From a virus (Duplodnaviria > Caudoviricetes): a stretch of 64,000 nucleotides of DNA. Shown here piece after piece: positions 9,612-57,987 of the stretch. Under the pieces are notes generated by a model. It was given only the letters and a program-made list of their open reading frames with translations, was not told the origin of the DNA and did not search any database. A program made the translations under genes and the position numbers. Each line of letters starts with the position of its first letter. Position 1 is the first letter of the stretch. The stretch covers positions 603-64,602 of IMG/VR virus record IMGVR_UViG_3300020048_000135, one strand, 5' to 3'.

Positions 9612-11540
9612 ATGAAGTATGAAATAAGAAAATTCAATTATGGGGGTGCAATGTTCACCCCTATAATTGAAACTATGCCAGGAACGAGCTCAACAAGTTC
9701 AGGAAGTTCAAGGACTTCTTCAGACGATGATACTTCTAATAAAAAAGAATCATCTGTATTAGATGATGAAATATTAGAAAGATTGTATCAAGTAAAGGGA
9801 TTGACAAATGATGTACATAAATTTATATCAGAGATATCTGAATTAGAAGATGCTATGGAATTTTCACTTTCTGATACTAATAATAGAACAAAACTATTAC
9901 ATATAATTGATAAGTCTAATGAAATTTCAGAAAGCAAAGAATATTGAAAAGATGCTATAGGAAGAGCTAAAGAAACTGGAGGATTAGGAGAAATAGCAGT
10001 TGATAATGAAGGGAGGGTATTTGTTAAGGATAAAAAGAATAATATACTTTCTCTTTCGCCAGAAAATGTACTTAAAAATAAAGGTAAATATTCTTTATTA
10101 AGTGTACAAGAATTAATGTATGAAAGACAAAATAATCCTTTATTAGCTGGTAAAAATCAAGTATTTACAGTTGCGGATAATGCAATTGGTATTAAAGAAA
10201 TTGGAGATCATATATCAAAAATACTTTCAACTTTTGGAAAAGAAGATTCTAAAAGCGAGAGTGTATTTTCAAAATCTGAAGCTGCAAAACAAATACAATC
10301 TCTTGGAGGCAAAAAACCTTCAGAACAAGATATAGAATCTTTATTAATATTAAAGCAGGTAGCATCAGGATATTCAGATTATTCTAAAGTAAAAATAGAA
10401 AAATCTTCAGAAAGAAATAATCTTACTGCAGGGCTAAATTATATTTGAAATAGTTTAGGTTCCCCAGCTCAAAATAAATTAAAAGCCTTGTCTAAACTAC
10501 AAGGAGAAAATGATGCAAGTAAGTTTCTATTAACTATGATAGAAAAACAAACTGATCAATCCACAAGTATAAGTGTGCTTCCTATGTCTAATCAAGTAGC
10601 TAGAGGAGAAGGTTCTGAAGGTTCTGATGGATCTAAAAAAGTTGCCTGAACTCCTGCGGAGTTATCTTTGATGGATAAACTTTATAAACCTGGAACTACT
10701 TATACTATTAATAATCCTAATGCAGGAGTAGAAATACAAATGGCTGCAACTTTTGTAGGACCTTTATATGAATTAGATAAGTCTGGAGCAGTTATAGAAC
10801 CTACGATGCTTAGTAATATACTTTCAAAAAATAAATATCAATCAATATTAAATCCTCATGATGCATATATTGGAGATACTAAAATAGATCCATCTCAATT
10901 AGGAGAAATAGTCTATTCTGGAAATGATATTGCAAAGGTATTTGTTCCAATTAAGCAAGATGGATCTTTAGATTTAGGTTCTATGGATAGGTTTAATAAA
11001 GTATTTAAAGTATATCAAGAAAATAAAGACGAATGGACTGTTCAGCAAGCACAAGCTTATTTTATAAATAATGATTTTCCAGGAGTTAAAATAAAAAGAT
11101 TAGCTGGTAGAGATGGAAAAGTATCTAGTGAATTGGTAGAAAATAATGCAGTAAAACCTTTTTTAGCAGTACCAATATTAACTAACTCTGCATCAGATCT
11201 TTCAGATAATCCATGAATGAATAAATTGCTAGGGAATAAAAGAGAATCTGCCGAACTTATAATGGACAGAGCTTTTACAATTTTTGGAGGAACTCCATCT
11301 AAACCTACTGCTAATAATATGACACCAAGTAATCCTTGATATAATCCCATAAATGAAAAACCATATTCTGGAACTGTATTTATAGCATTTAGACCAGAAG
11401 CTTCAGCATATTTATCAAGTATGAGTAGTCATTTCTTTGGAGAAGGAGTAGATGAAGAAAATGTTAGAATGAATTTACAACACTCTGCAAATAATAGCTA
11501 TTCAAAAGCTGATGCAAGTGGAAAAGTTTTATATGAATAA
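9612..11540 (+). CDS. 642-aa virion-module protein of unknown function; TGA=Trp
   Basis: ATG follows the upstream TAA directly. The frame is open through 5 TGA to TAA 11538-11540. N-terminus is MKYEIRKFNYGG. Confidence 0.75.
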
Positions 11541-11551
11541 TAAAAATTACT

Positions 11552-14500
11552 ATGAATAATAATAAACCCAACGATATACTTGTTGCAACAATAAATAATC
11601 CTTCAGTATCTGCATATGATTTATTATCCAGTAATGTACTAGGAGATAATACTTCATTACATACAAAAGAAGAATATAAAAGTACTAAATTTATAAAAAA
11701 TGCTTTTACAACTGATGGAAAATTTGATGAAGTTGCTTTTGATAAAATGTATAAATTAGCTTCAGATAAATATGCTGAACTAACTAATGAAGAATATATT
11801 AATAGTTTAGATGAATTAGAATATAATCCATTTGATATTACAAGACCTAAAGAAGCTAAAACATATTCCGTTGGGAGTTTTTATAATAAAGAAATAAACC
11901 CCTTTAAAGTATCAAAAGGATGGTCAGGTATAGGAAGTGTAGATGAAAGCCCCTTTTCTTTAAGAGAAATAGCTCAACAAAGTAAAGTATATGATAAAGA
12001 AACAGATACTTGATCTGAAGAATCTTTAAATGATTTATCTATTAAAGATAAATTATTTGGGGAGACTTTAGTTTATGCTCAGTATGATAATGATGGAGAA
12101 CATGAAGATCTTGAATCTGGATATATGGTCAAACATAAAAAAGGAGATTGAATAGTAAATAAAGAAGGTAATATCTTTACTGAAAAATTAGGTAAAAGAG
12201 AGATTTATGGGAAACAAGTAGTAAATCCTTCTGATATAATGACTACTGATGGAAGTATATTTGATAAATTTAATTTCTTTGATTCTGATGATAGAGAAAA
12301 ATCTATTGCTGGAACTAGTTTTAAATTAGCTGCTCAAATTGCCCCATATGTAATACCTGGAGTTAATTTTTATTATGGAGGGGTTACAGCAGCAATAAAT
12401 CTAGCTGCAGTATTACCGACCTTTTATAAAGCGTTAGAAGGTATGTTGTTAGGAGATAAAGTAACTGGAGCTACTAAATTAGCTACTGCAGGAGAAAATT
12501 ATTTAGCAAAATTTGTTCAGAATAGTATATCTGATGAATCTCAAGATTCTTTATTTAATTATGAACAAATGGGACAGTTAGTTACATCTGTGTTTGCTCA
12601 AATATATCAACAAAGGGCTGCTGCTAGTTTAGCTACTATTGTAAAAAGTCCTAAAAATCAATTATTCGATAAAAAACTTAAAGAATTATTAGATGAACCT
12701 AATAAAAATTTTATTAAAAACAATTGAAAACTTAAACTTAAAGGCGTTGAGATAGGTGAAGAAGCAGAGAAAAAAATATATGCTTCAATGGCTGAAAAAA
12801 TTCCTGGCTTAAAAGAGTTAAGAGAACAACAATCTCATATGGCAAAAGCTTTTAATCTTGGTTATATGGCTATGGTTACAAGTGCTGATATTTATGGAGA
12901 AGCGATAGAAGGAGGGTACGATAGAAGAACAGCTGGTTTTGCAACTTTAGCAGCAACAGCTGGACAATACGGGATAATGATGAATAATGAAATGGGAACT
13001 TGGTTTTTAGATAAAACTACTGGCTATGATATTAATACTAATAAAGTATTAACAAGAAAAGCTATTAAAGACTTTTTACCTGAAATTAAAAAAGCATTTC
13101 AAGCTAGATCTAAAGACGGGCAAAAAATTGCTTTATCTAAAAGTTTTAAAGGAATTAAAGAAAAGTTTAATGATATATTCTTAAATCCATCTGAATTAGG
13201 AGAAAATCTTTTTAAGCATTCTATAGTAGAAGGTGTGGAAGAGGTTACAGAACAATTAGTTTTAGATTCTACTAAAGGTATGATAGATGTAATGAGTTAT
13301 TTAGGACTTACAAAAAATCAAGGATCTTTTGGAGGATTTGACAATGTATTTAGTAAAAAAGGATTAGAAAATTACCTTGCAAATTTAGTAGGAGGTATGA
13401 TAGGTGGGCCATTATTTGAATATAATTCTACTAAAATAGAGCCAAAAATTAATTCTTTATTTAAAAATAAAATAGTACAACCAGAAGTAAAAACTTCGAT
13501 ATATCAATTAATTGGGAATGGCAAAACTAATGAGTTAATAGCAGAAATAAATAAACAACGTAAGTTTTTAGGTAATAATTTTATTAATTTAGCCTCAGTA
13601 GAAGGAGATGTTCAACCAGCAGAAAAAGTCGGAAAATCAGAAGCTGATATAATAGCCGACAATGCTATTGGAATTGTTAAAATAATAGAAGGGATAATGA
13701 ACTCTAATGCATTAGTTAAAACTAATGAAGAAATTGTTCAAAAAGCTTTTATAGATCATTTAGTTATAGAAGGTCTGGAAAAAGCAAAAGAAAATTTTTC
13801 TACTGGAGTAGAGGGTCTTGTATTGAATGATTATACTAAAAATTTAGATCTTTTGGTAGAAAAAAATCTAGAAATTTTAGAACTTCAAAAAAATACAACA
13901 GAAGCCTCTAATAATGAGTCTATAAAACAGTTAAAAGAAGAAGCTTCTGTTTATAAAAATAATATTAATGATATTTTAGAGGGTAAAAAAGCCCAGCATT
14001 ATTTTGATAGAGTTGTTACTTATTTTAATAAAGATCTTCTTAATTCATTTGTTGCCGTTGATAGAGATTCTTACGCTAAAATAAAATATAAAAAAAGTTA
14101 CTATGATATGCCAGAAACTGGTATAGGCTTTACTAAAGAAAAAGTTAATAAGGAATGAAAAGAATACAAAGATTCTGGAGACATAGTTAAAGACTTAGAA
14201 GTTGCTGTAGAAGCAATTTTAAATCTTGAGCAATTAAGCAATGAGGCTGTAACTAAATTTTCTGAATCTGGATATGATGTTCAAAGAATAAAAAGTGGAA
14301 AAGATCTTATTAATATGATTGCAACTAATTCTTTATTTTCTACTGAAAAAGAAAGTAAAGGCGCCTCTTTTGCACAATTTTTAGAAATGTCAAAAACTCT
14401 TGGTAAAAAAAGTGGTAAGAAAATACTTCCTTGAGATGTAATAACAACTAACTTTTTTGAAGGATTGTTAAATAATAATTTCATTATTAATTCTAATACT

Positions 14501-17500
14501 AATGAAACTATTACCCCAGAATCTTTAGAACAAGTAGTAGAAATTGAAGGCAATAAGACTACAAAAAAAGAAATTCTAAAAGATTCAGTTAACGATGTAC
14601 TAGCTTTAATTCCTGCGGATAATATTAATATAGAAGTTTTTGCAAAGACATTTAATGAATTTACAAATAAAGTAAATGAAGATTTTAATAAGGAAATAGA
14701 AAGACTTAGTATTGATAAAAATATCCTAACTTCAAAATTGGAATCAAAAAATGGAACAGAGCGCACACAAATTGAAAATGAAATAAGTGAAATAGACCAA
14801 AAAATAAATGATATAAATTATAAAAAACTTAATGCACATGTTCTTTCAGGATTTCAGTTTACAAATGGTCAAAAAAATAAATTAAATATATTAGAAGACA
14901 ATTTAAAATCAGAATTAGAATTTCTTAAACTTACTAAAGAAAAAGAATTTTTAAAAAAATTAAAAGACAAAAAAAACTTAGAATATGATTCTGGTAAAGT
15001 ATTAACAGATGTAGAATCTATAATAACAGAAAAAATAGATGGTAAAAAGAAAAAAACAAAAGATATAATAGAAGAACTTTCTCAATATCTTGCAAATAAT
15101 GAAGTTTTTAATAAAGAAGTTTTACATACAACTCTTAATTCTCCAACTGGAAAAAGTACCGATAAAATAAAACGAGTAGTTACTGCTTTAAAGAAGGATG
15201 AAAGTTCTTTTAGTAATTACAACTCTGTTATGAAGAATCATCAAGATTCCCTGCAAGTTATAGAAAATGAAAAATCTTCTTTAGAAGAAATCAACTATCT
15301 ATTCCATGCTTTATTAAAAGAATTTAAAGAAGGAAATAGAGATGGAGAAATATTAGAATTACTTAATAAAACTTATAATAATAGTTTTGAATCATTATCA
15401 AGTATGAATGTTTCAAAAGTATTTAAAGATGAAGAGTTACTGGAAGTTTTAAAAGTTACTTCAAATGATTTATCACTTTTAAATAATTTATTTACTAAAT
15501 GATCCACGTATGTTGTAGTAAGAAATGATGTTGAAAGTGGACAAAACCCAGAAGAGTATTGAAAAGAAATAGGCAACATTATAAATTCTATTAGCAATGA
15601 AAATGTTAAAAATAAAATTTCCAAAGTAATTAAAAAAGATTCTGAAGGATTAAGTACAAGAGAAGAATTGCAGAAAATAAAAAATGTAGTTACAAATATG
15701 CTTGATTTTAAAATTAATAATAAATCAGACATTGAAGTATTACTTAAATCAGAAGAAATATTTTCTAAAAGTAATGAATTTATATCTAATTCTATATATG
15801 ATTTTGTAAAAGAATTTTCTGTATCTTTGAATAATGATTCAAATCCGCAAATTATAAAACTTTTTGATATACTTAAAAATGAAGAATATTCACTACGTAA
15901 AGCATCTGATGCCTCTAATTATTTATCAGATGGAGTTAATATTAAAGTGCTTCAACAGGGAATAGATACTTTAAAAATGCTTAAATCTGTTGTCAATGGT
16001 TTTAGTACGACTACAATAGATCTTAATAATCCTTATGGCTTCATAGCATTAAGACAACAATTTGCTAAAGCAAATAATACTAAATCTGATGTTTTAAAAT
16101 TAAAAACCATAAATTCTGATACTGCAGGATTGATTAATAATGATATTAAAAGACTTGAAAATAAATTAGGTTTTATGAAAATACTATTATTAGGGAATTC
16201 TGGCAAAATGTATGAAGAAGAAGAAGAAATTAGAGCAAAAACTAATGATCTACTTCTTAATCATTGAAAAGAAATATCTAAACTAAATATTAAATTAGCT
16301 GGAAATTCGGTAATAGATGATTTAGATAGTATTATAGTAAATAAATCTTGGTCTAATGAAAAGAAACTTATGGCTATAGGAGAGTCTTTTTATGAAAAGC
16401 ATAAAAATATATCAACTCAAGATAGAAAATCTTTTCTTGCAGATTTAAAAAAATCTCTACCTTATAAAAATAATGCTATTAATATATATAGTAAAGATGG
16501 AAGTAATATTATAAATAAAGATGTTAAACAAGTAAGTAATAATGATTTTATTTTATACCTAGCTTCTAACCTTGTTATAAATTCAAAAGATTTTAATATA
16601 AGGTTAAAACAAGCTCTTGAAGGTGAATTTGACAAATCTCCATTCTTTACACAAGAAATTGCAGCCCAAATAGCCTATGCATCTATTGTTGATCCTGAAT
16701 TATTTCAAGAATTGGCTAAACCTGATAATGATAATATTATAAATACTGAGAGAATTACTTATTTACTTGGCAATACAGGAACTGGAAAAACTACTGTAGA
16801 AGCTAAGCTTTTAATAAATTTACTTAAAAATAATAATCCAAATTTAAAAGTATGATTTGCAGCTCCTTATAAAGACCAAGCTGAAAAATTAGAAAGAGAA
16901 GCTCTTTTGGGAATGGATACAAAATCCTTTACTAAAAATACACTTAGTAAAAAAGAAGTTTTTGAAGCTTTGGGAGTTGCTGATATTCATAATAATATTA
17001 ATAATCCAGCTAATAATGTAATAAATTATAAAAATGGATATTTAACTGTAAATAAAGAAGCGTACGAAAATATTACAATAGCTGAAAATTTACCTAATAT
17101 ACTTTTTATAGATGAGATAACTCATTTTGGTGCTCATGAACTTTATTTATTAAATGAAGTTTCTAAAAAAGCATTAGAACAAGGAAAAATACTTAAAATA
17201 GTGGGAATAGGAGATATTGCCCAAAGTGGATATGAATTTCAAGGCTTGTCTTTTAATGCAGATTATGTATCTGGTATATTTGCTCCTAGGCTTTCTTTAA
17301 CCGTAAGGGCTTTAAATATACAACAAAGATCAAATGCAGATTATTTATCCGCTTTGGCAAATACTACACGTCAATTATGAGAATCTACAAATGATGATAA
17401 AGTTATATTAGATATTATAGGAAAAGGAGTTTCCTTATCATCGTATACAGACAATGAAATTTTAAATGGAAGTTTGTTAATTAAGAAAGATCCAGGCTCG

Positions 17501-20500
17501 AATAATCCTGAAGAATCACCTAAGGCAACTATTCCTGATAATGTTTTAAAAGTATTATCCAAAACAATTCAAAAAAATAGTAATACAAAAATAGCTATAT
17601 TAAATGATTCTTTAGATCTTTCAGATGATTTATTAGATGCTTTTGCTAAACATGGTATTACTGATTCAAACTATAAAATATACAGTCCTAGTAATATACA
17701 GGGAGCTGAATCGGATTATTTTATTTTTAGTACTTCTTTGATAAATCCTAAAACTACTTTAGCTTCTAAAATAAGAGCTTTAAATACTTATATTACAAGA
17801 GCAAAACATGCAACAATAATATTAAATGATGCTCCTGAAAATCTGCCTTTTGAATTAATTGAAAAAATAGATGATTATCCAAGATTTATTGACCCGCTTA
17901 CAGAAGAGGTAATAAAAGAAAATAAACAGTCTAGAATAAAAGCTTTAACAGAACTTTTGGGAGAAGATTTAAAAATAAAGTATGATTATTTTAAATTTGA
18001 AAGTGATAAGGTAGAAGAAATTAGTCCCAGTAAAGAAGAAGGTATTAGATCTTTAACTCTTAAGGCTGAAGATAAATTACCTGAATGGGAGACTAAAAAT
18101 ATACCAATTTCTAGTATGAAAGATATAAAAGATTCTTATATGATACACACTTTTTATAATGATTTAAACGCTACTAAAGTACATCATGCTGCTGAAGATA
18201 AGTATTCCTTACAAAAAAAAGAAGGATCTTTTTATGGCTTAAATACAGGAAAAGTAACTGAGGCTGAACTTGATGAAATTATAAATAACTATGTTAAGTT
18301 AAAAAATAATATTTTATTAAATAAAGGACATGATGAAGATTTTCATATAAATGGAAAAACTGTATGAGGAACTACTAAAGGAGAATTTGTAATACGTAAA
18401 AGTACTTATGATTCATCTTATAATAATCCATATAAAAAACTTTATGGAAATCCCAGTCAAATGCTTACAACTGGAGAAGTTTTTGTAAATCTTTTTTACA
18501 AAGTAAAAAATGTTAGAGATGATATTGAATATATACATTTAGCGACATTCCCAAAATTAACTACATTAGAGAATAATTTAGAAGGAGGAGCAAATTCTGA
18601 ATTATATAAAAAGTATAAAGAATTTATGGGCAGTACTAATCAAGAAGTAGTTGTAGATAAAGATTCATTTACTATACATACTTCTACCAGATTAGTAACA
18701 CATGAGGATGCTAAAGTACCTAGAGAAGAATTTACAATAGAAGCTTTGAAGAAAATTCCAGGTATAAGGTTTTTTAGTACAAATACTAATAGTTTTGTAG
18801 ATTCTCCTGAAATAAATTTATACCCAAATAGAAATAGCCCCACTGGATTTTCTGATTTCGTAAATTTATACAGAAAAACATTATTTAATAAAGAACCTAC
18901 TAATGAGGAATTTAAGAAAATGTTTGAAATGTATGCTGGAAATGCTTATATAGTAGTATCTTTTATGCCAAAAGGTATAAATAAAGGAACTGAAAAAAAT
19001 AGTCATCTTCAAATAATACCTTTAAAAGCAAAACAAAGACCTTTTGAAGAAGTTGTAAAAATAATACATAACTTTAAAAGGCTAAAGGATAAAAAAGAAA
19101 AAAACCCAGAATATTCTGTAATAAAATCATTATTTAGTGGGTCTCAAATTTTAGACTTACTTATCTTACTAGCTGAAAAAAGACCAGATTTATATACTAA
19201 ATTATTTGAGCCTAATAATGATATTTTAGATGCTCAAAATAAATGAAATGAGTTGGATAATAACACAAATGCTACCGTTAAGGCATTTATAGAAGAGTAT
19301 TATACAGTCATGAAAATTGATGTTAATAAATATGGAAATAGTTTAATATATAGATTAGGATATACTAATAAACATTTAGTTGAAGTATTTACTCTTATAT
19401 TACAAACTGTTAAAGATGCTCAAAAAGTAAATAAAAGTATTGATAAAAAAGCTCTTAAAAAAGCTTTAGTAGAAAAAATTAAAATACAATCTTCTACTCC
19501 ATGATTTCATGATTTTTGACATTTGTTTCAATTACAAAATATGTTTGCTAATATGTCTGAAAGAACTGATATTTTAACAGGTTTGTCTGATTTTGCAAAA
19601 ACTATGAGTTCTACATTAAGTGAAATTACTAAATTTTTTGAAGAAGAAATAAAAATAGCTGGAAAATATGTAACTGGAATTTATTATAATCCACCTATAC
19701 ATGGTAAGGCAGGTAGTGATGGAAATTTAACTTTGGATAAAAGTGCAGAAAATTTAAATATGGAATATCTTTATACTGATTTAGCTCCAGAAAGTCCTTA
19801 TTTATTATTAAAAACAGATTTTATTCAAGAAGGAGGATTAGTAATTGATTCTAGTATTAAAACTGCTGAAACTGCTGAAACTGCTGAAATTATTGAAGAA
19901 GATTCAAATATAAATTCAAGTACAGATGTAAAAGTAGATGAACAAATTGAAATAAATAGTCCTAATGTATTAAAAGAATCTGAAATTGAAAATATTTCTG
20001 AGCCTGTTAAAACTAATGAAAAAGTTATTACAGAAACTGCTAAACAAAAAAAGAAAAGACTTGAAGAAGAGGCTAAAAAATTACCACAAGAATCTAAAAA
20101 TGTTCAAGCTGAAATTCAAACTCCAATTGATGCATTAAAACAAAAAGTAATAATGAATACTTTTTATTCTAATATATTTAAACCTTTAAATGATTCTTTA
20201 GAAGAGTGGGCTCTTTTAGATAATAATTTAAAAAAATTAAAAGGATTATTAGATAGTTATAATATTAAAATTGAAAATACTGATAGTATAGTTTCACATA
20301 TATTAAATCTTTTAACTTCTATTGCTAATACAACAGACTCTAAAAACTTATTTAATTACTGAGTAAAAACCAGAGAATATCAATTAAAAGCTGAGCTAGA
20401 AGGTAAGGATAAAGATACTTGAATGATTGAATTTTTTAGAGGGACTGATTTTAATGATTTTTATAATAATATAAAAACATCTGGAAATCAAGAAGGTAAC

Positions 20501-20614
20501 TTTTTAGAAAATCTAAAAGATTTAATGTTTGATTCCTTAAATACTACTGATGGAACAGAGCTTGGAGAATATGCAAGCTTCTTAGATGATAAACTAATAA
20601 AAAATTGCAATTAA
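11552..20614 (+). CDS. 3020-aa giant virion protein with SF1 helicase-like domain; TGA=Trp
   Basis: One frame with 16 TGA and no TAA/TAG until 20612. Motifs: Walker A GNTGTGKTT (16769-16795), Ia WFAAPYKDQA, Walker B LFIDE (about 17102-17116), III GDIAQ, V IQGAESD, VI YITRA. Confidence 0.85.
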
Positions 20615-20615
20615 C

Positions 20616-23600
20616 ATGATTGTCTGCACACCTGATAGGCAAAAAGCCTTTTTAAATAATATAAAGAGACAAAAAATTATTAATCTACAAACTATAATAG
20701 ATTTTGCTAAAAGTTATTTAAAACTTGATGATAATATAACTAAATTATCAGAAATATTAGATTCTTTCTCTACTGAAAAAGAGGAATTTATAAATTATTT
20801 ACAAACTATAGCTAATATTTCTATTAAGGAAACTAGTGAAGGAGAGATGGCAATAAAGGGGCCTAAAAAGCCCCAATCTCCTTCTAATGTATCCCCTAAT
20901 TTTATAGCTGCTAATGTAGATTTATTATTTACGGAAATGCATATTGCACATTTGCATTTTAAACAAAATACAAATAAGCTTTTGTTATCAGCTGCTTATA
21001 TTGGAGACAAAGATAAAGATACATATGCATCAGATTCTGAAATTACAGAGAATATGAATTCTTTAAAAAATGATCTTTTTATTGAAATTGTAGACTATTT
21101 AGTACTTCAGGGTATATTAAAAAAAGAAGATTATTTTGAAGATATAAAAGTAGGTGAAAATATTGTTAGAAAATCTTTAATAAAGCTTTTTGACAGTTCA
21201 GGATTTAATCCTCGCGCTTATAAAAATCATTATAAATTAGTAATGAATTTATTAGAAAATCATTTATTATCTGATTCAGATGCCATTGTTTCAGTCCCAA
21301 ATTCAAATCAAAAAATACCAGCATTATTTGGTCCTTTAGAAGATCCCATAGCAAAGAAAAAATATGATGTATATAATGCAGCTATATTACTTTTAAATTT
21401 TGATACAATTGTTTTATCAGATTTTGAAAAAATATTAGGAGTAGATAAAACTACTTTTAATACATTTGATCAACCTTTAAATGGTTTTAAATATTTTAGA
21501 AAAGTAAAAGGTTTAGAAACTGCCTATTTTAAAGAAGATGGGGTAACTACTGGAGGAGTAGAAGAATTTGAAAGTAAACTTTCTCATAGTTTAGTATCTA
21601 TAATTCCAATATATAGTGCTGATAAAATACTTACAACTAACTTCATGGAAATGAGAGATTTGTATGGATTAGGATCTAAACTTAATGATTTTCAAACTAA
21701 AAACTTTGTGACTTTATCTAAAATAGAAGATTGAACTACTTTAGAAGAAGATCCTATAAGAATGTTGAATTGATATAGTGATAGAATTATAGAGGCTTAT
21801 GGAAAAGAATTTTTAACTACAGCAAGTACACAAGATTCTTTATCAGCCTCATTTTGAGAAGATTTTAGGTATAAAGTAAATGTTGTAGTATCTTTAAAAG
21901 ATTTTTTAAAAGAAATAAAGATTAAGGAAGAAAATTCTACTAATTTTTCTATGGCTAGAATTATTACTCAGCCATTGGTAAATTCAATTGGAGCTGTATA
22001 TTCTACAGATGGAGTTGACAAACATTGAAGAAGTTATAAGGAAATGCACGCTCATAATTCTGAAAGGGTGCAATTACAAGAATCTATATATGGACATTTA
22101 AAAAATAAACTATCTAATTGGGATAAAGTATATTATAATAAGGAAACTTTAAGACAAACTCTTAAAAACTTAGATACTGCTTCTTTAAGAAAAGTTATAA
22201 ATAATTTAACTGGAATTTATTTAGACACTAATTCATTAAAAAATTTATTAGAAAAATGAACTTCTAACAAAGGTATAGGAAGAGATTTAACTTCAGAAGA
22301 AAGATTAGAGGCCATTGTAGGAAAAATTCATGACATGATTTTAAAAATATTTCCAGAAACTGAGGAAATAGAAGTCATTACTAAAGCCACTAAAGAGACT
22401 CCATCAAAAACTATAAAAGTTACTAAGGGATTATATAAAGGAAGTTTATTTGAAGCCATAGCTAAAAATGAATTAAATATAGAAAAACTTAGTTATGATC
22501 AAGTAAATACTACTAATGATGTAATATCTACTTTATCAAGTTCTACATCTTTAGGAGCTATATTAGATGAAAAATTAAAATCAGTAAAAGCTATAGTACT
22601 TACTAAAGTTTCAAAACAAGATGGAAAACCTATTCCTACTTCTGTTATACCTAGTCTAGGATTTAATGATTCAGCTTTATTATTAGAAAGACTAAGATTA
22701 GAAAGGAATGAGAAAGACAGACTTTATAAAAATTATTTTGTAAATAACGGAGGTTTAAAAGGAACTGTAATAAGATTAGAATCTTTAAGTGGAGAAGATG
22801 CCAAAGATGCAGCTTTATTAAATGTAGTAGAAAATTTTACTTCTCATTTTGAATTCGATTTTTTAGAGTCTTTAAAAATACTTCCAGAAGGAAGTACTGC
22901 TATTGACGATGTTAATATAATGATTGGTAATTATGCTGATAAATCTAGAATTTTAGATAAAAGAGTCTCAAATAAAGCTTCTTTAAATGGATTGGCTATA
23001 ATTAAATCTACTTCTCCAGCTGCAAAATTATCACTTGAAAAAAGTGTAAATGTAATGGATTCTGAAAAAGTTTGGGAAGAAAGTAGAAAACAATCTTTAA
23101 ACTATTATACTGATTTATCTATAAGTCTTATAAATACTTACTTAGAATTAATACCTAATTTAATACCTAAAAAAAGTATAGGAAAAAAAGAATATTTCTT
23201 TAATACTGATGATGGGACAGCTAAAATAGACTATGTAAAAATAAAAAAGCTTTTAAAGCAAATAAATAATCATATAAAAGGAATAGATTACAATAATTTT
23301 TTAAAAATAACTAATTCTCTCAAAGGAGATTTTGTAAAAGAATTACACTATTCTGTGTATAAAGAAGGTGATGTGTCTAAGATTTCTTTAAATCAAACTA
23401 TTTTAGATTATTTAGATATATATTCAGATCCTCTTATATTTGATAAATTTGTAGAAAGACAAAGAGAATCTTTTTTATACAAAATATTAGATTATAAACC
23501 AAGTGGTATTTTAATGGATGCTCGTTCTGCTACAAAATTATCTAGTTCAAAAGATGGATATGATGAAAACATAATGAAAATGATGGTGCATTCTATAGGA

Positions 23601-26600: not shown

Positions 26601-29600
26601 CATAATTTTAATAAACAAGTTTATGAATTGTTTAAATTATATTCTGGGTATACACCAAAGAATTATGAGTCTTTTAATGCATATTTAAAAAACAATTTAG
26701 AATCTATTTTAGATCAAGTTTCTAAAAGAACTTATGTATCCTGAGAAAAGTCTACTCAATTTGTTGCTTCTCGTATTCCTGCTCAATCTATGCAATCTTT
26801 TATGGAAATGAATAATGTTGGGTACTTTAATACTAATAATAATGAAGTTTATGTATCTATATGACAAATAGTAATACAGGGATCTGACTTTGATATTGAT
26901 AAAGCTTATTTAATGGGATATGGGTTCAATAAAATGGGACACTATGAAATAGCAAGTGATGCTTTTAAATTTACTACTAAAGAATCTTTAGAAGCAATAG
27001 AAGCATTACCAAAACCCTCTAGAAAAACAACATCTTTTACATCTGGAAATAAAGAAGTATTAGATATTTCGTTAGAATTTAATAAATTTGTAGAAAGTTT
27101 TGAAAGTCTTGAAAATATAGACCCAAATTCTTTAGGAAAACTTGAAGATTGATTAGAAGAAATTGCCAATCTAGAAGAATATACTGAAGATATGTTAATT
27201 AGTGGAATAAGTATTCCTGTAAAAAGTATAAAAATTATAGGAGATATTTTAGAAAAGATAAAAAAATCAAATATAGTTAACATTGATTATTTATATAAAC
27301 CTCTTATAAGTAAAGATTATCAGGAAAATATATTTAATGAATATAAAAAAGTGTTAGTTAATTTAGTTAATAATCACAACACTTCTAAAAATTATACTAA
27401 AAATAAATTTTCTCAGATTAATGCAAATGTTTCAAATATAAGAAAAATAATATCAGATCCAGCAAATCAACTTTGAGCAAATAGTCCAGTTGATTTTGAT
27501 CCTTTCAATGAAGGTGCTGAGGAAGTTATTAAAGAAAGGGAAGAAAAAAGAGAGAAAAGAATTTCTGAAATATTAAAGGATAATGATGTTAATACAAAAA
27601 TAGAAGATATAAAAGACTCTTTAAAAATATTATCTGAAATAAATTCTTTGTATAAAGTAATAGTTCTTAAACCTGCAAAAACTTTAGGAGAATATATTAA
27701 AGAAGCAGAAAGAATTAACATGTTGAAAAATACTCTGTCTGGACACGATATGGTTAGTATGTTTAAACAACAATCTGATGCTATTATAGGTAAAAAAGAT
27801 GTGGGTATTGGTGCAAATGGTCTAAAAGTAATGTTTGCATTAAATTCTTATTATAATAAATATTATAAGTCTTTAGCCGTAAGATCTTCTGATAATGCTT
27901 TATTAGATTCTAAAGGAAAGACAGTAGATCCAATGAAAGATCCTAAATGGTTTGAAAAAACTTTAAATATGGGAGGTAAAATTGGAACGATTACTAAAGC
28001 AACTATAGCTGATGTTTGACTTAATGATAATTTAAAAGGAGCTATACTTAATAGTCTTGGTTTAGAAAGTCAACAAAATTTGCTTAGTATTGTGCAAAAC
28101 GGAATGGCGGCTATATATATCTCAGGATTTGTATCTGCAGCAACAGATAATGCTAAAGAGTTAATTATGGCTAAAATTAATGCTATTAATGAACTTGCTT
28201 CTATGCATTTATATTTAATGATGTTAGGACTTAGTGCTGAACAAGTATCAAGTTATATGACTTCTGATCTAGCAAACCATGTTGTTTCTAAAATAAATTC
28301 ATCTAACATATATGAAAATGCTAAAGGAATGAGTGTAAATAATATTATAAAAAGTTATATTAAAAACAATCCTTCAGAAGAAACTTTAGCAAAAACATTT
28401 ATTGATGTATATCAAGGGGCACAAGAATTTTCAAATTTAGCCGGGTTATTAAAAATAAATCAATCTACTAGTGCTGATATTAATAGTATGTTTTTATTTT
28501 TAAATAAATTTAATACTGCTATGTATACTAGAGAACATGCAGTATTAGAAGAAAATCTTTGAAAATTAAATTCAGAAGAACATTTAGATGAGGCTGTACA
28601 AATAATAATGACTAAAAATCCTAAGTTATCTGAATCTTATATTAAAAATGTTTTGGGAAAAGCTTCTAATATAAAAGTTAATACCATAAATGAAAAAGGG
28701 GAAATTGTTACTAAAACAACTTCACTTTTAGCGGGAGGATTTGATTTTAGATATTATATAGAAAACGATAATGTAAATTATAGGGAAGTTGCTATAGAAT
28801 ATTATAATTTATTTAAAAACACAATTAACATATTTGATGTAATAGAAGATTCTACACATTTCAAATCAATGATTAAAGGATTAAGTAATGTTCATATGAG
28901 TGCTATGATTGTATCTAAAAAATATAATTTTGTATTTAATACTGCTTTAGACATTATTAGAGAAAAATCTCCTGAAATATATAATAATAATCAAAAAACA
29001 ATAAAAAATTATTTAGGAAATTCTAAACTAGTAATAAATTTAGATGATAGAATTATAGGAAAATTACTTAGAGGATATGATGGATTTGTAGTATCTGCGT
29101 GAACTAAGACAAATGATTTAAAAGATTATCAAATAAGTATTAAGACTCTTTTAGAGCAATCTGGATTAGATAAATTTGAAGCTTACGTAAGTGACGATGC
29201 AAAAATTAATCCTATAGGAAAATCTGATGAAGGAACTAAAACTATCATGGTAAATTCTGAAGAAGATTTAATAATAGATTTAACTTCTGATTTTGGAATA
29301 GCCAACTTTAAAAAAGCTATGGAAGAATTAATTTTTCCTATATTAAAAAGATCTCAATCTTCTCAATTAGGATCTTTGCTAAGATTAAAAAGTTTAAGAA
29401 ATCCATATGGTTTATTTACTTCTCAAATAACTCCTACATTTGGTATAAGTTCTTTGGATAATGCTGTAAATGTAACTAAATATCAAGCTTTATTACACGA
29501 TTTTAATCAAGTAGATTTTAAAATAGAATCTGAAAATAAAATAAAAAATAAGGATAAAAATATTTTAAGATATAAAGATTTATTTTATTTATACAATCTT

Positions 29601-30032
29601 ATAGTAAATAATGAACAGTATGGTGATAATAGACTTACTCCAATATTTCAAGATTATGTAAAGGATAAAAATAGCATAGCTTATAAATATCTCGATTTTT
29701 CAAGAAAAATAGATTTAAGAGAAGTTGATATATTTAAAATAGATATTGATCCTACTTTAAATGATGGTTCTAAAAATGTGCTTTATGATAAACTATTACA
29801 TAGTTTTAAAAATGATGTTATATTTTTAGCATTAAATAAAAGAGGGGCAGTAAATGTAAAAAGATTAGGTGCTACTGCTTCTACTCAAATTGCAGTGAGA
29901 AATTCTCATTTCATTATAAATACTCATGCTGATGTTTCAGCTAATATAGATGTAGAAAAATATACTCAATATTCGTCTTTATTATCTATACTTAATAATT
30001 CAAACTTACTTATAAACTTTAAATGCGATTAA
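20616..30032 (+). CDS. Virion-packaged multisubunit-type RNA polymerase (crAss-type, single 3138-aa chain); TGA=Trp
   Basis: One frame with 15 TGA, ending at TAA 30030. SRIPAQSMQS is followed by the catalytic GSDFDIDK (DFDID 26886-26900), the motif known from crAss-like vRNAPs such as phi14:2 gp66. Confidence 0.92.
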
Positions 30033-30033
30033 T

Positions 30034-33000
30034 ATGAAGTGTTATTATTACATAAAACTTCCAAATGGTGGGGAACTTAGATTCCCCGCCACTTTTTCAA
30101 CTTTATCTTCTAAAGATAATAAAGAGCTTAGAGATTTAATAAATAAATTTAAACAAGCTAAAACAGATGCTTTTAATGCTTTACAATCTTATGTTAAAAA
30201 TAATACTGGACTTTCAGGTCAGGCTACAGTACTTATAAATGAAATTCAAGTAGATCATAATCTTATAAGCGACGAAGATTTTGAAAAATTTATAACAAAT
30301 ATAAATGATAAAGTAACAGCTAAAGGAGAGTATGCTGAATTACAGAAAGCTATAAGTCAAGTTATTTTTAGCAAAAAAGGTAAAATAGACTATTTTAATA
30401 AAAATGAAAACTGAGTAAGTATAAAACCGGAAGAAGCTATTCAAAAATTAAAAAATCCAGTTCATATTGATTATTTTGGACAAGTAGATTTTGAAAATAT
30501 AGTTGGGACACTTAGTTATAACGATTTACATGAAGAAAATGTAATAAAAACTCTTGAATTAGATTCATTTGGATTAAATTCCAATTTTCCAAGAAATTTA
30601 GATAAATTATTAGGTTTTGCTTTTCCAAATAAAAATTACAACAGAGTTCAAAAAACTTTTTTTAAAACTACTTTTTCATCAGATTCAGTTATGGGAAAAG
30701 ATGATTCCATAATAATATACGATGAACATTTGAGATTGCCTCTTATATTTGTACAAGAAAATAGTCAATTATCTTTAAATTTTGCAATGCTTAAAGTTAT
30801 TGCAGTCTCTCTTTTTGAAAATAAACCTGACTATTTAAAAGAGATTATACAAATGTATAATAAGAAAGCACATGAAACAAATCAAATAGATGTAAATATT
30901 GAAATAAAAGAGTTTTTTACAGGAAAAGTAATAGATGGAATAAGATCGGATCCAGAATTTTATAAACTTTATAAATTTGCATATGGAGAAGATGCATTAA
31001 GTTTATTAGCATCAAAAATGATAGAACTTTTACCAGCACAAAATGAAGATTTAAAAAACCCTATTAAAAATACAATAGGATTAATGTCTCCTAAAAATTT
31101 GAGTAGCTTTAATAAATTAATAGAGCAAAAAGAATTTGTAAAAAGTTCTAATAAAGAACAAATCGTATTATTTGAAAAATATCAAATAAAAGATATATTG
31201 CCTTTATTTGAGAAGGATAAAAGAACTTCTTATTATAATATAGAGGAAGTGATAGGTCCTTTTGAATCTTCTATAGATTTGTTTAATTATTTAAATTATA
31301 ATATAAGAAAAAACCTTGATTTAGTCAAAGTTTCAATAGAAAATAAAAAATCCGGTGAGGTTAAAAATAGATATATAACTCCATCAGTTATAAAAGTATA
31401 TGGGGATGTTGTTTTTATAAGAGGATGATATAGTCAAAACGGAACTCCTACATCATATTCAGGTGTATTAGATTTTAAAAAATCCTTGTCGATAAATAAA
31501 TTTCACTCTAGTAAAAAACCAGATATTTATTCTAGTAATATGACTGAAAAACTTGTAAGGCCTATAATTATTAAAATAGACTCTGAAAACAAGATGCCTG
31601 ATTCAGTAATAAAAAGTTTAATTCATAGAGGTAGTTATGTAGAATATACCTATGAAAAAAATGAAAAAGATGAAAAAACTGGAAGTATTGTAAGAGTAGA
31701 GAAAAAAGGAAAGGGAACAGTAAAAAATGTACTTCCTGGAGAGATACAACTAAATCCAGTAATATTCAAAGATAAATCAATTAGTTTTTCTCCAACTATG
31801 TCTAGTATCACATTGATACATAGTAATATAGAAGAATTAGGAGGATTTATTTATAAAGAATTTGCAAAATTAAAAGATTTAACTTTATCCCAAGAAGAAG
31901 AATTAGATAAATTTTTAATTGGAAAAAGTCAACTAGCTATAAAAAGTCTTCAAACGTGAGATAGTACAACTCCTATATCAAAAGGAGATTGAGTATCTAT
32001 AAATGCAGGTAAAAATAGCAAAGGAGAAGATTTAGTTGTACATAATATGGTAGTAGGAAAATCTAAAGACACAGTTTACATATTAATACAAACAGCTAAA
32101 GGTAGTAGAATAGAATCTATTCCAAAAACTAAAATAACTAATGTATTTAAGCCTAAAGTTAAATTTGATAATGATAAAAGAAGAGAAATAGGTGAATTTT
32201 ATTCAAAAGTTATGGAGGAAAGATCTATTAGACAACATGAATATTCAATGTTTTATGATGCAAATAAACTGTCAGATGGAGACTTTGCATGATCTGAGTC
32301 AAAAAAGATATTATATACATTAATAAACAAAGAGTCAAATGAATTTATCAATTTTTCTATAAAAGATGGAGAAGAATCTGTAGAATATTCAACTTCATTA
32401 CCTAAAGATGTTGTATTTATTACTAATAAAAACATTGCAGATGATAGCTATGGAGTTTATATAGACTTTAATAATTTTGATCTAATAACTACTGATAAAT
32501 TAGAAGAAAAGCAAGAAGAAAAAATGTATCTTATTCCTGAAAATATGGATGTGACTATAGATAATCTCTTGCCATCTGGTAATCTTAATATAGGATTAGT
32601 AAAAGATAAAGATTTTGTTCAAAATTTTGAAGAAGACCCAACAATTTATAAAGATGTTACTAGACAGGTTATAGAACTTATAAATTTAAGAAGGAAAGAT
32701 ATAACTACTGGTAAAGGTACTAAAATGTTAGCTATAAAACATTCTGAAGGAGGTTTTTATAAAAGGTACGATTCAAATTTATATCAAGTAAATTACTCAA
32801 AAGAATATGTTAAGTTTCTGAAAGATTATGCATTTATATCTTTAAGAAAAAAAGAGATAGTAAATGGTAAAGAAAAAGAAGTTATAAGTCATAAATATAG
32901 AATTATTGCTAATGATGGAAAAAAATTAATTCTTGAATACAATGTATTTAATAAATTTGGAAAAGTAATTACAGTTAGTAAAACATTAGACTTAGAGACA

Positions 33001-33756
33001 GAAGGAGATAATATAAAGTATTTGTTTGTAATGAAACATAATTCCGATTATGCAGCTGTTAAAAAGATTAATGAAGCAACTAAAATAAAAGAAGAGAAAC
33101 TTTCTAAAAAAGAAATGTTTTCTGGTATAATAACAGCTTTTCATCGTTTATACAATATTGATGTAGAAGTGAGGTCTTTAGAAGACGGTTTAAAAAAGAC
33201 TAAAAAAGCTTATATTCAGGCATCTTCTGCAGGAAATAAAATAGTAATAAATAAAGATTTAGATGGGTCTGAAGAAGAGATACTTCATGAATACCTACAT
33301 TTATTTTTATCTGCAGCAAAATATAATAATTCTAATATATATGAAAAGCTATTAGTGAATTGATTAAAAGTTACAGGTCAATCTTTAGAAAATTTAAATT
33401 TAATAGAAGCTGAAGAACTTTTTGTTTTTGAAGTTAGCACTCGAATGACAACAAATAGGGAATATTTACTAAATATAGACATGGAAAGTTTTTTAGAATT
33501 ATTTAGTGAAATATTAAAACAGTTAAAAGTAATAGAAAATGATGATAATACATTTAATCCAAAAAATGGAACCATTCAATCAGTATTTCATATATTAAAT
33601 TATAAAATGTCTGATATATCAGCATTTAAATCTTTAGGATCTTCTTCTAAATCTAGAACTAACTTACTGTATTATGATTTAAACTTTAAAGAATGAATGG
33701 AAAAGCTTACTACAGGGGGAGATGAAAATAATAAACTAATAATAAATTGCGAATAA
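30034..33756 (+). CDS. 1240-aa vRNAP-associated protein with zincin (HExxH) domain; TGA=Trp
   Basis: One frame with 7 TGA, ending at TAA 33754. KAYIQ...IVINKD...EEILHEYLHLF (HExxH at 33286-33300) with a downstream EELF. Confidence 0.8.
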
Positions 33757-33757
33757 A

Positions 33758-36700
33758 ATGAGTTGTAGATATGAAATAATTATAAACGGAACAAGAGCAG
33801 AATTAGATTCTATATTAGATTTATCTAAATATTATTATATAAATGGAGGGACTCTAAATACTCAAAGAGTATTTAGCTCTGTTCAGGATGTAGTAAATAC
33901 TTTAAATACTGTATTAGGAAGAACAGACGCTATAAAGAAAGATGATAAGAAAACTACTATTACTAAATTTATATCAGAAGAAAATAAAATATTTAGAAAA
34001 TTAGGATATAATAAAGATAGACTTTCTCCGGAATATGTAGAAGAAAGTAGAGTATTAAATTCTGTACTAAAAAATCTTCCATTTAAAATGTCTCAAGGAG
34101 TAACTTCTTTACAAGATTTAATTGATAAAGTAGAAAAAAATCCAGAATATAAAGAAATTTTTGAAAGCAGTTTAAATAATATTAAGAGTATTATAGAGTC
34201 TGAAGAACTTGGGAAGAATTTTGGGATATCATTACATAAAGCTTTAGCTTTAATAATAAGAGGTGCCAATTTAGATGATCAAGTTTTTAAAATATTAAAA
34301 GAGCATGAGGATATATTAGATAATAAAGAATCTTGAAAAAATAAACTCACTGATACATTATCTAAAATACATAAAGAAATTGCAGTGCTTATTAATAATG
34401 GAGGTACTATATTCTCTGAATTTAATGTAGATTCTGTAGAAGGTTTAATTCCTTTAAAAGGATCAGCTGATATTATTCTAGTAGATTCTGAAGGTAATTT
34501 GCATATTTATGATTTAAAAGTTTCAAAGCATGATTATGCAGATTGGGATTCTGCAAAAGTACTATATACTGATTATCAATTAGCTTTTTATAGAGGATTA
34601 TTATCTCAATATGTAGATATTACTAATGCAACCTTAAACATAATACCTATTAAAATAGGACAAATATATAAAAGTTCTGAAAATGCCAAAGGGCAACTTT
34701 TACATTCAAATTTTCACTATAATAAACAAATATCATTACTAACAGAGTCTAGTAAAGGACTTCATTCTAATGGAAAAATAACTAAATTAGTAGAGCAGAT
34801 CTTGCCTCCTAAAATGAATATTCAAGCAAATGACAAAGTTATAAAAGATTTTAAAGATGATTTAAATATATTATTACCTAATTATGAAATTAAAACTAAT
34901 AATGCAGAATATAATGTAGATAAAATTGTTGATTATGCAGAACGTAATGGAAAATTTGATATATTTAATAGCTTTACTAAAGATTCTTTAGAATTAGTAG
35001 AAAATCTAGGGAAATTAGGATTTAAAGGAGAAGGCGATATTTTTAAATATGAATGAGGGAATATGGCTCTTGCAGAGAAAAAGAAAAAATATAGAGAGGC
35101 TATTGAAATTTATGTTGCATATGCAAAACAACATAGAAATAATAACTTAATAAGTCTTAAAAATTCTATAATGTCTGCTATTAATAGTGGAAAAAATACA
35201 ATTACCTGAAATAATAAATCTATTGAAACTAATTTAAATAATCTTTTAAAACCATATTTATTAGGAAATTATAGGCATATAAATGGAATAAAAGAACTAG
35301 ATGATTTAGGCTTAATTCTAATGCAAAATAAATCTGACAATAGTTATAGTATATTAAGTATAAGTTCTTTTCTTCAAGAAGCATCTTATAGTAATGATTT
35401 ATTATTTGGGGACTTGGAATATATTAAATCTTATTTATTTTTTAATAATTTTTATGATGTTTTAAGAATTGATAAAAATAAAATTGAAGATATAATAGTA
35501 TTTAATCTACAATCCGGCAGTTACTATTATAGAGATCTAGATTCTACCTTTGAATCTTTTAATAATTTAATGAAACAAAGACCTTTAAATAATAGATTAG
35601 ATTCATTTACAAATTTAAAAGATACTATAGAAAGTGCTAAATATATTATAAGAAATGTTTTAAGATCATATAATAAACCTAATAAAACAACTTTAGAAAC
35701 TATATTATCTCCAATTATTAATGAGTCTATTAATGTAGAAGATTTAGCAACTGTTAAATTAAAACAGCTGATGTCAAAATTTAGAGATGAATTTCCTCAA
35801 ATCACATCAAAAAAACCTAAAGATAGCTTAAATTTTAATGATGATATTGAATATTTATATGGAATATTATCAAGAATATTACTTTTAAAAGAAGATATAA
35901 CTCCTTATGGAGATACTGGGAATTTAAAGGAATTTGGAGTATCTTTTTCTGATGTTAAATCTATTTTTAAACCATTTTTTAGTGATAAAAAAGAGGAATA
36001 TGATGCTAATGGAAGAAGAATACAAGGAATAATTGGTGGGACAATGACTATCCCTCCTGATAAAATATCATCTGTAGACTTAAGAAATATTAATTCCTTG
36101 ATTAATAGTGGAAACTCATTTGTAAGACAAATATTTTATAAACAATCTTCTCATTTAAGAAGTTTAACTAGAGGCTTTTTCAAACAAATAAATTATACTC
36201 CATCTGAACAAAATTGGTTAGGTAACTATAGAAATAAATTTGAAGGAATGTGAGTAAAAGATGGAGATTCTATATCAAATGCATGAAAAGTAAAAAATCC
36301 ATACTTATATGATGTTAATAATTCTATGAAAGACTCTGAAAGAGCTTATTTAACAAAATTGCTTTTTGAGATAAAAAGATGAGAATTAGGAATTTCTGAA
36401 AGTTCAGATATAAATATAACTTCATTGGATACTTTAAAACAATCTAAAGACGGATTAAAAGTATTGGAAGCTATTGAATCTGGAGAGTATTTTAGAATGC
36501 CTTTAGTTAAAAATCAACAATTAACTAAAGTTGGGGCATTGTGAAAAGATGGGTTTTCTGGATGAGTAGATAAAGCTAAAATGATTGGGGAAGAATTTAA
36601 TGACTTCTTTGATGAAAGAGAATTACATGAAGAAGAACGTTCAAATATTTATAAAAAAGAATTGGGCTACTATGAAATGTATAATATATATGAAATGCAA

Positions 36701-38395
36701 TTAAATAGAAGCGGGTTTATAAAAGAAATGGTAGATAAAAATTCTCCACAATATTATGAATTAAATCTTGATATAATTGCTCATAGAGTGGCTTTCGCAA
36801 AAATAAGACAAAAATACATTGACTCTATATTACCTACTATTAATGCGTACATGTGAGAGATGAAATTAAGAGCTGGTATAGGTAATCAAGATATTTCAAA
36901 TGCTTTAGACTATATAACTCAAAGAGTTAAAACTGCTTTGTTTGATTCTCCTAATGTTTCAGAAGATGCCATAGATGCAGTAAAAATAGTAGCTCCTTTA
37001 AAGGCTATTACAACTGCTGGAATGCTAGCTTTTAGACCTATGTTATTACTAAAAGAATTAGGTGTTGGACTATATAAAGGAATAGCATTAGCAGCTACTA
37101 AAATATATGGAACTCAACAATTTGGTATAGAATCTTATTTTAAAGCTTTGGGAAAATTAGCTACTATTGATAAAAAAGCTTCTTCAGAATTTAATTTAAT
37201 AGATGCTATTAATTTTTACTATGGTTTTGCGAATACTGATGCTAATAGTCTTGTCCAAAAAATGCAAACTAATAGAAGAGGAATTTTAATGGGGTTAGGT
37301 CCATGAATGTATTCTACAAGTACAGCTCCTGATTATTATAATAGACTTTCATTATTTTTAGCTAAGATGATAGAAGAAGGTACTTATGAAGCACATTCTA
37401 TAGTGGACGGATATTTACAGTATGACGCCACCAAAGATAAAAGATTTACAAAATATTTTGCAAATAGACATCTTCATAAAAATAGTGCAGGAAAATATAT
37501 ACCAGCTAAAAATGATGAAGAATATAACAAACAAAGAAATTTGTATACCCTTACTATGAAAGAGCTTAATGAGAATGGCGAAAGATTTGGTAATGTTGAG
37601 TTAACTGAAGAAAATGATATACTTCCACAGGCTTATTCTGAAAAAGAAAGACTAAGTTTTAAATCTTTTGTTGATACTGTATATGGTTATTATGATAAAG
37701 ATTCGCAAGCTTTATGGCATCAAACTTGATATGGTATAATTTTTCTACAATTTTTACAATTTTGGCCAGGAAAGATGAGTCAATGGTATGGAAAAGAAAT
37801 TACTGCAAAAGAAAGTATGATGGGAGAACACGTTCAAAAAACAATCACTCGTGATGGTAAAAAAATACCTATATGAAGAAAAGCTATATATAGTGATTCA
37901 AATCCAGAAGAAATTTTAGGATTCAGTGAAACAGAAGAATATACTGGAGATCCTCATATAATATGGATTGGAAGACCACAAGAAGGTTTAATGCAATCAA
38001 TATTAAAAACTGCAAGGTATTTTTTCCATGGAGAAATGGGAGAATTTAAAAGTGATGAATTACTTCAAAAAAGATTTCTTTTTGGAATCGCTGACGGATT
38101 ATTAATGATGTTATTATTTGGAATAATAGCGAAACTTTTAGCAGGATGAACTGAAGAAAATGGAGTTGAAGGACTTGAAGAGGATACTATAAAATTCTTT
38201 CAAAAAGTTGCAGAAAAAGCAGAAAAAGAAGGAAGTTTACCGCAAAATACATTTGGAGCTATAAATACAACTCCTGCTTTTGTAAGCTATGGAACTAAAC
38301 TTTGAACAGATATGTTAGATGTTTTTGAAGGTAATAAAACAGTGTCAGACTTTTCTAAAAATGTAAAAGCTTTTGAATTATTTAATCAAGAGTAA
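33758..38395 (+). CDS. 1545-aa giant virion protein with PD-(D/E)xK nuclease domain and C-terminal hydrophobic helix; TGA=Trp
   Basis: One frame with 14 TGA, ending at TAA 38393. GISLH...GSADIILVD...IYDLKVS...YQLAFY (about 34220-34590) fits a RecB/Cas4-like PD-(D/E)xK nuclease. TM-like GIADGLLMMLLFGIIAKLLAG lies at about 38085-38145. Confidence 0.8.
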
Positions 38396-48943: not shown

Positions 48944-48945
48944 AA

Positions 48946-57899: not shown

Positions 57900-57914
57900 A
57901 ACTTATTAAGTTAG

Positions 57915-57987
57915 TCGAAGTAGAGGGACTCGAACCCTCACTTTACAGATTAGAAATCTGTTACTTTATCCATTAAGTTATACTTCA
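57915..57987 (-). tRNA. trnR: tRNA-Arg(UCU)
   Basis: Cloverleaf: acceptor TGAAGTA/TACTTCG, D arm ACTT-AATGGATA-AAGT, anticodon arm ACAGA-TT TCT AA-TCTGT, T arm GAGGG-TTCGAGT-CCCTC. Arg identity base A20 is present; CCA is not encoded. Confidence 0.93.

Follow-up and report, generated by a model that had tools for sequence, protein, structure and literature searches.

We describe here a run of four giant genes, P1–P4, in a 64,000-nucleotide (nt) stretch of phage DNA (Caudoviricetes), referred to as the window, which is part of the 64.6-kb IMG/VR contig IMGVR_UViG_3300020048_000135 (completeness estimate of the record, 37%). The encoded proteins contain only six cysteine (Cys) residues, all of which lie at the ends where one protein of the series meets the next. 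This terminal-Cys rule was found to hold in 17 of the 17 crAss-like genomes examined (the window and 16 others, with three genetic codes among them), the count of terminal Cys being twice the number of junctions. On these sequence comparisons, we consider it probable that the proteins are joined head to tail by heterotypic links, probably disulfides, into a train, cleavable by reduction, in which they would be packaged together and ejected in order.

When the window was read with translation table 4 (TGA = Trp), four back-to-back open reading frames (ORFs) were obtained on the plus strand, at 11552–20614 (P1, 3020 amino acids [aa]), 20616–30032 (P2, 3138 aa), 30034–33756 (P3, 1240 aa), and 33758–38395 (P4, 1545 aa). 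Table 11 breaks them into many pieces, as they hold 52 in-frame TGA codons. The computed translation contained six Cys in 8,943 residues and no internal Cys, all six being at most four residues from the three internal junctions. Junction 1 has the second-last residue of P1, Cys3019, on its upstream side (codon TGC, 20606–20608) and Cys4 of P2 on its downstream side (TGC, 20625–20627). The corresponding residues are Cys3137 of P2 (TGC, 30024–30026) and Cys3 of P3 (TGT, 30040–30042) at junction 2, and Cys1239 of P3 (TGC, 33748–33750) and Cys3 of P4 (TGT, 33764–33766) at junction 3. At all three junctions, the Cys codon is followed by a single further codon, the stop TAA, one nucleotide, and the ATG start. 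For six Cys placed at random among the 8,943 residues, the chance that none lies outside the 18 positions at the junction ends is about (18/8943)^6, or ~1e-16, and it is ~5e-13 if 10-residue windows at all eight termini of P1–P4 are allowed. Cys is much rarer in P1–P4 than in the remaining proteome, as in Cys-suppressed phage ejection proteins. A preliminary description of this DNA had reported four giants with TGA read as tryptophan and six Cys, all junctional, and had quoted the terminal peptides; the computed translation agreed with it exactly, down to every peptide. Its further remark that the first protein lacks an N-terminal and the last a C-terminal Cys is true of the window and, as described below, of the homologue families.

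P1, the first chain member, contains a superfamily 1 (SF1) helicase-like core (Pfam AAA_12, AAA_30, AAA_19, and ResIII at residues 1731–2093). P2 is the catalytic protein of a virion RNA polymerase (RNAP): it carries the DFDID metal-binding signature of two-barrel RNAPs (26886–26900; residues 2091–2095), which is flanked by GS on its N-terminal and by K-x-Y on its C-terminal side, and residues D2091, D2093, and D2095 are invariant in the P2 alignment (A1). The GSDFD-x-DK context is common to P2, crAss001 gp50 (position 1483), phi14:2 gp66 (1361), and the RNAP fusion of crAssphage LMMB (1433), phi14:2 gp66 being the structurally solved crassvirus virion RNAP. P3 has a C-terminal zincin-like domain with an HExxH motif (33286–33300; residues 1085–1089), and in the P3 alignment (A2, seven sequences) H1085, E1086, and H1089 are invariant together with C3 and C1239. 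P4, the last chain member, has a PD-(D/E)xK-type nuclease region near its N-terminus, its homologues matching PF12705 in Pfam. The labels given in the preliminary description are borne out in part: helicase, RNAP, and protease by Pfam, the DFDID signature, and the HExxH motif, respectively, and nuclease by Pfam matches on homologues only. Searches of PHROGs gave no match for any of P1–P4, Pfam searches with P1–P4 found AAA/helicase domains in P1 only, a PDB sequence search with P2 gave no match, and searches for P3 relatives in IMG/VR, GenBank phages, and a word-indexed protein search returned nothing beyond P3 itself. It is rather likely that P1–P4 make up a virion-packaged, host-injected enzyme set composed of a helicase protein, a virion RNA polymerase, a zincin protein, and a nuclease protein.

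The conservation of the terminal Cys was examined in homologue families collected with P1, P2, and the first 1200 residues of P4 as queries, counting near-full-length matches. In the P1 family, where the first 10 residues were counted as N-terminal and the last 12 as C-terminal, an N-terminal Cys was present in 0/112 and a C-terminal Cys in 112/112 proteins. The P2 family had an N-terminal Cys in 117/118 and a C-terminal Cys in 116/118 members, and the P4 family, counted as one representative per 50%-identity cluster, had an N-terminal Cys (positions 3–6) in 75/77 and a C-terminal Cys in 0/77. The internal Cys frequency in these three families is 0.12–0.23%, which gives an expectation of ~1–2% per terminus. 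The terminal Cys are kept in hundreds of homologues with identities down to ~20%, and in alignments with a mean column identity of 22–30% they are invariant or nearly so, on a par with catalytic residues: C3019 is an invariant column of the P1 alignment (A4), C3137 is invariant and C4 nearly invariant in P2 (A1), and C3 is invariant in P4 (A3, 43 sequences). The tail beyond the C-terminal Cys consists of 0–10 residues of any kind, and two to seven residues precede the N-terminal Cys; in the clade of the window, the C-terminal Cys is often followed directly by D, E, or N.

Six homologous loci, which use TAG as a glutamine codon, TGA as a tryptophan codon, or the standard code, have retained both the four-gene order and the Cys rule, i.e. 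the first protein has a C-terminal Cys only, the two middle proteins have both, and the last has an N-terminal Cys only. The preliminary description had proposed looking for such conservation across homologous loci, and it was found both in the families and in the 17 genomes. The spacing at the junctions of the relatives ranges from a 10-nt overlap (−10) to an 11-nt gap (+11), one downstream start is a GTG that overlaps the stop region of the gene before it, and the Cys are encoded by TGT as well as TGC. Since spacing, start codon, and codon choice vary, selection acts on the protein residue and not on a DNA motif, and the TAA-N-ATG arrangement of the window is incidental.

Two of the relatives deserve separate mention. 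At L007:19416–20498, P3 is cut to 360 aa, which is essentially the zincin domain alone with both terminal Cys kept, and the length of P3 among relatives ranges from 360 to 1257 aa. At L006:2072–9985, in a relative with the standard code, gene calling divides P1 into four ORFs (2023, 325, 218, and 54 aa), which may reflect frameshifts, errors of assembly, or a genuine split; the single Cys of the last piece is at −4.

The same rule was observed in the cultured crassviruses crAss001, DAC15, and phi14:2. In crAss001, gp47 (2341 aa) has a single Cys at −3, gp50 (2412 aa) has Cys at 5, 1334, and −9, and gp49 (1349 aa) has a single Cys at 5; all three proteins are present in virions according to mass spectrometry (PMC10172136). 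The gp47 gene is encoded on the strand opposite to gp50 and gp49 with its Cys kept, which shows that the rule does not require the genes to be neighbours. The Cys are arranged in the same way in DAC15, whose first protein is likewise encoded on the opposite strand. In phi14:2, where g065–g071 are annotated as virion proteins from tandem mass spectrometry, the only Cys of g067 is the last residue, the RNAP g066 has Cys at 3 and −2 only, and g065 has Cys at 3 only, so that these proteins have four Cys in 5,398 residues, all of them terminal. A virion location of the RNAP and its delivery into the host are established for crAss001 and phi14:2 only.

The terminal Cys also follow the gene fusions that distinguish crassvirus families. 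In Intestiviridae (LMMB, crAss002, Rudgehvirus, and cr8_1), the RNAP is fused to a gp49-like protein, as seen by blastp, and only two terminal Cys are left, which belong to the C-terminal end of the first protein and to the N-terminal end of the fusion. In the Suoliviridae cr113_1 and cr10_1, the gp47-like and RNAP parts are fused, and terminal Cys are found only at the second junction. FpV4 displays the Cys pattern of the Suoliviridae fusions; judged from size only, an extension of ~1,700 aa N-terminal to its RNAP region points to a fusion, and blastp gave no gp47-like match for this extension. A further protein, P0303, looks like a fusion of a short P3 with P4 and has a single Cys exactly at the fusion point, and the LMMB fusion protein has a possible relic Cys near the fusion region. 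In two-protein systems, each protein has one terminal Cys.

Several annotations of these loci call for comment. The start of crAss002 gp33 should probably be moved 32 codons downstream of the annotated one (L012:12088–12190), as an internal Met-Ser-Cys at residues 33–35 matches the N-termini of the relatives. In cr10_1 (NC_055875), gp32 is followed by an ORF that lacks annotation (L014:20748–24356; at least 1203 aa) and runs off the end of the record; its Cys is at position 5, and it supplies the last chain member that was missing there. In FpV4 gp30 (L013:1054–2850), the only Cys is residue 5. Among Intestiviridae, the gp45-like cargo proteins each have a single near-C-terminal Cys with no evident partner: at −2 in the 861-aa protein of LMMB (L010:1576–4161), at −8 in crAss002 gp30 (L012:1393–3066), and at −11 in Rudgehvirus gene49 (L016:1950–4223).

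From the position and conservation of the Cys, their independence from gene arrangement, and their complementarity with fusions, we infer that the partners are neighbours, that the bond is a disulfide formed in the particle and broken in the host cytoplasm, and that it serves packaging and ejection. Internal Cys would have been removed from P1–P4, as in other ejected phage proteins, with one Cys kept at each neighbour-facing end. In the assembled particle, the C-terminal Cys of each protein would pair with the N-terminal Cys of the next, most likely as a disulfide, and the product would be one quasi-linear chain P1-P2-P3-P4. As the Cys are 0–11 residues from the ends, a linked junction would be hardly thicker than a single unfolded chain, and P1–P4 could therefore thread the portal and the tail channel as one train. 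Threading would then occur in a fixed order and with 1:1 stoichiometry, and the reducing cytoplasm would subsequently free the separate enzymes. A disulfide is the simplest chemistry, given that there is one Cys per end, that the flanking residues are not conserved across clades, and that disulfides between virion proteins have been seen by electron cryomicroscopy in the crAss001 virion (PMC10172136).

The head-to-tail chain suggested in the preliminary description has gained partial support from the conservation of the Cys, the 17 genomes, the independence from adjacency and spacing, and the complementarity with fusions, while the bond itself, the docking by strand complementation, the nature of the lock (disulfide or metal), and the roles in stoichiometry and ejection order are putative. 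Overall, the interpretation of P1–P4 as a chain is strongly supported by the comparative evidence. For the Crassvirales and their relatives in general, we regard as evenly balanced the case that the injected set of two to four giants (0.7–1 MDa) would be one disulfide-stitched train, joined C-terminus to N-terminus, that is packaged 1:1, drawn through the tail channel in a fixed order, and unhitched by the reducing cytoplasm, gene fusion and Cys pair being interchangeable evolutionary solutions to the same joint.

Some points weigh against a disulfide-linked chain. Formation of the bond is problematic, since phages are assembled in the reducing cytoplasm of the host and the surroundings of gut phages are anoxic. 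With one Cys per terminus, the sequence cannot tell which Cys pairs with which, and since the N-terminal motifs of P3 and P4 are alike, the specificity of the junctions is left unexplained. The N-terminal Cys is lacking in 2/77 P4 representatives and the C-terminal Cys in 2/118 P2 homologues, and the C-terminal Cys may sit as far inward as −9 to −11. In addition, phmmer and two-round profile searches did not join the window clade to the crAss001, phi14:2, and LMMB proteins, so that its equivalence to the canonical crassviruses rests on the RNAP motif and synteny. For the RNAPs of epsilon crAss-like phages, similarity has been described only at the HHpred level (PMC11054128).

Other roles of the terminal Cys have to be considered. 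The pairing could be head to tail as proposed, with the Cys sharing a metal (Zn or Fe) or stabilising a non-covalent strand docking, and no disulfide being made. The pairing logic fits this equally well, the problem of disulfide formation in a reducing cytoplasm or anoxic gut is avoided, and the D, E, or N that often follows the C-terminal Cys in the window clade could be an additional ligand. Known zinc clasps and hooks, however, take two Cys from each partner, whereas here there is a single Cys per terminus with no CxxC and no conserved His, and residues flanking the Cys vary between clades. Moreover, inter-subunit disulfides do exist in crAss001 virions (PMC10172136). We regard metal sharing or docking without a disulfide as unlikely. 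Another view would be that the terminal Cys do not join neighbours at all, but make like-with-like links, anchor the proteins to some other virion component, or act as redox-sensing or unfolding handles. The partners cannot be named from the sequence, and the partnerless near-C-terminal Cys of the gp45-like cargo in some Intestiviridae would be in line with such roles. This view nevertheless leaves unexplained why an N-terminal Cys is never found in the first protein (0/112) nor a C-terminal Cys in the last (0/77), and why a fusion removes the terminal Cys of exactly one junction; moreover, the middle proteins, with a Cys at either end, would form polymers if like paired with like. We therefore consider it quite unlikely.

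The Cys codons might also be a by-product of a nucleotide signal at the junctions (for coupling, reinitiation, or frameshifting) or a relic of a split giant ORF. The uniform layout of the window junctions, of which junctions 1 and 3 are similar as DNA, would be expected from this. In the relatives, however, spacing, the use of ATG or GTG as start, and the choice between TGT and TGC are variable, and in crAss001 and DAC15 the C-terminal Cys of the first protein persists even though its gene lies on the other strand, apart from that of the presumed partner. Nor would a relic have remained invariant at ~20% identity while Cys elsewhere in the proteins were lost. An origin of this kind is very improbable.

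Some more specific candidates were rejected. N-to-C cyclisation within one protein is ruled out by the two-protein systems, in which each protein has one terminal Cys. Split inteins would need an N-terminal half of ~100 aa behind the upstream extein and a C-terminal half that ends in HN ahead of the +1 Cys; this does not agree with the presence of only 0–10 residues after the C-terminal Cys and two to seven before the N-terminal Cys, and Pfam gave no intein domain. A zinc hook or zinc clasp was dismissed because of the single Cys per terminus and the lack of CxxC or CxC, and a lipoprotein-type N-terminal Cys because its defining motif is absent. A phage thioredoxin found no support as a dedicated partner: it occurs near the module in some relatives but is absent from the 64.6-kb record. 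Several relatives have small genes for thioredoxin in the early module, immediately past the giant block (region L003:28885–28889; Rudgehvirus L016:27240–27515; L017:27230–27499), and they may serve ribonucleotide reductase, their usual role, rather than the chain.

P1–P4 resemble the Crassvirales cargo (crAss001 gp47, gp50, and gp49; phi14:2 g067, g066, and g065) in being giants encoded beside muzzle and cargo genes, in the GSDFD-x-DK signature, and in obeying the same terminal-Cys rule. They differ in that the chain of the window clade is made up of four proteins, not three, in that this clade is recoded (TGA = Trp), and in the distribution of the domains: P1 contains the helicase and P3 the zincin, which in Intestiviridae is part of the first protein. 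For crAss001, partial unfolding of the cargo has been argued to be required for passage through the tail constrictions, its exit order having been left unexplained (PMC10172136), and the relationships of the three RNAP-associated crassvirus proteins were listed as open in a 2026 paper (PMC13434306). Full-text literature searches, with the phi14:2 RNAP structure paper outside their scope, found no mention of crassvirus terminal Cys or of linked RNAP-associated proteins, in agreement with the preliminary description, whose author knew of no account of such an arrangement for crAss-like phages.

Schitoviridae (N4, DEV) likewise package an RNAP in the virion and eject it into the host, and Cys is strongly suppressed in their ejected proteins, for which the oxidising periplasm that these must cross has been held responsible (PMC11445570). 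Against this suppression, the retained Cys at each crassvirus joint stands out. The N4-type RNAP has a fold unrelated to that of the crassvirus RNAP (PMC13434306). It is a single polypeptide of ~3,500 aa (N-terminal domain, core, and C-terminal domain) with essentially no Cys, whereas crassviruses split the load over two to four polypeptides and have Cys exactly at the split points.

Two further systems invite comparison. In AB toxins of the diphtheria and botulinum type, an interchain disulfide holds the chains together through a narrow channel, and the cytosol reduces the bond and releases them. As in such interchain-disulfide-linked translocated proteins, a conserved Cys is present on both partners at the proposed contact, the bond being putative here. 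The comparison concerns the way of working and implies no homology: the toxin chains come from one nicked precursor and their Cys are not terminal, whereas P1–P4 are encoded by separate genes and the proposed link is end to end. The docking domains of polyketide and non-ribosomal peptide synthases are short C- and N-terminal elements that order giant subunits, among which fusion and fission are common. This docking, unlike the proposed crassvirus link, is non-covalent, helical, and cytoplasmic, and involves neither a conserved Cys nor translocation.

Recent structural papers pose the question of how several hundred kDa of giant crassvirus enzymes are stored and ejected through the narrow tail (PMC10172136; PMC13434306). 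If true, an end-to-end Cys link would provide a physical mechanism for stoichiometry, exit order, and release. It would also explain the family-specific splitting and fusion of the module, relate the three-protein set of crassviruses to the single-chain N4 enzyme, and extend to the most abundant human gut phages (Crassvirales and relatives). For annotation, the terminal Cys can be used as marks of the true starts and ends and of the chain membership of these giant and often recoded genes, as exemplified by crAss002 gp33, whose start is probably misplaced, and by the gene downstream of cr10_1 gp32 that the annotation lacks.

In the window, the P1–P4 block sits in the late module among cargo genes and is followed by a divergent early module. 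Two ORFs of virion proteins immediately upstream (5115–11540, plus strand; 1498 and 642 aa) belong to the context and are not chain members; they have 0 Cys in 2,140 aa, and their counterparts in the relatives L003, L005, and L007 are likewise Cys-free. The early minus-strand genes, when read in the standard code, have a Cys content of 0.4–3.8%. The neighbouring genes (DUF192, tail lysozyme, metallophosphatase, RNA ligase, Thg1, and ribonucleotide reductase) fit a crAss-like late/early boundary, and a muzzle-protein gene (PF25731, crAss_MUZ) is found nearby in L007. TGA is read as tryptophan throughout the plus-strand late genes (window positions 1–38395; 1–16 in-frame TGA per gene), and most of the minus-strand early genes (38445–64000) have no in-frame TGA. 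The early module contains two pairs of adjacent small paralogous genes, at 48461–49425 (160 and 159 aa; the N-termini of the two are nearly identical) and 50390–51147 (137 and 120 aa). A tRNA-Arg gene with the anticodon TCT is located among the early genes on the minus strand (57914–57987).

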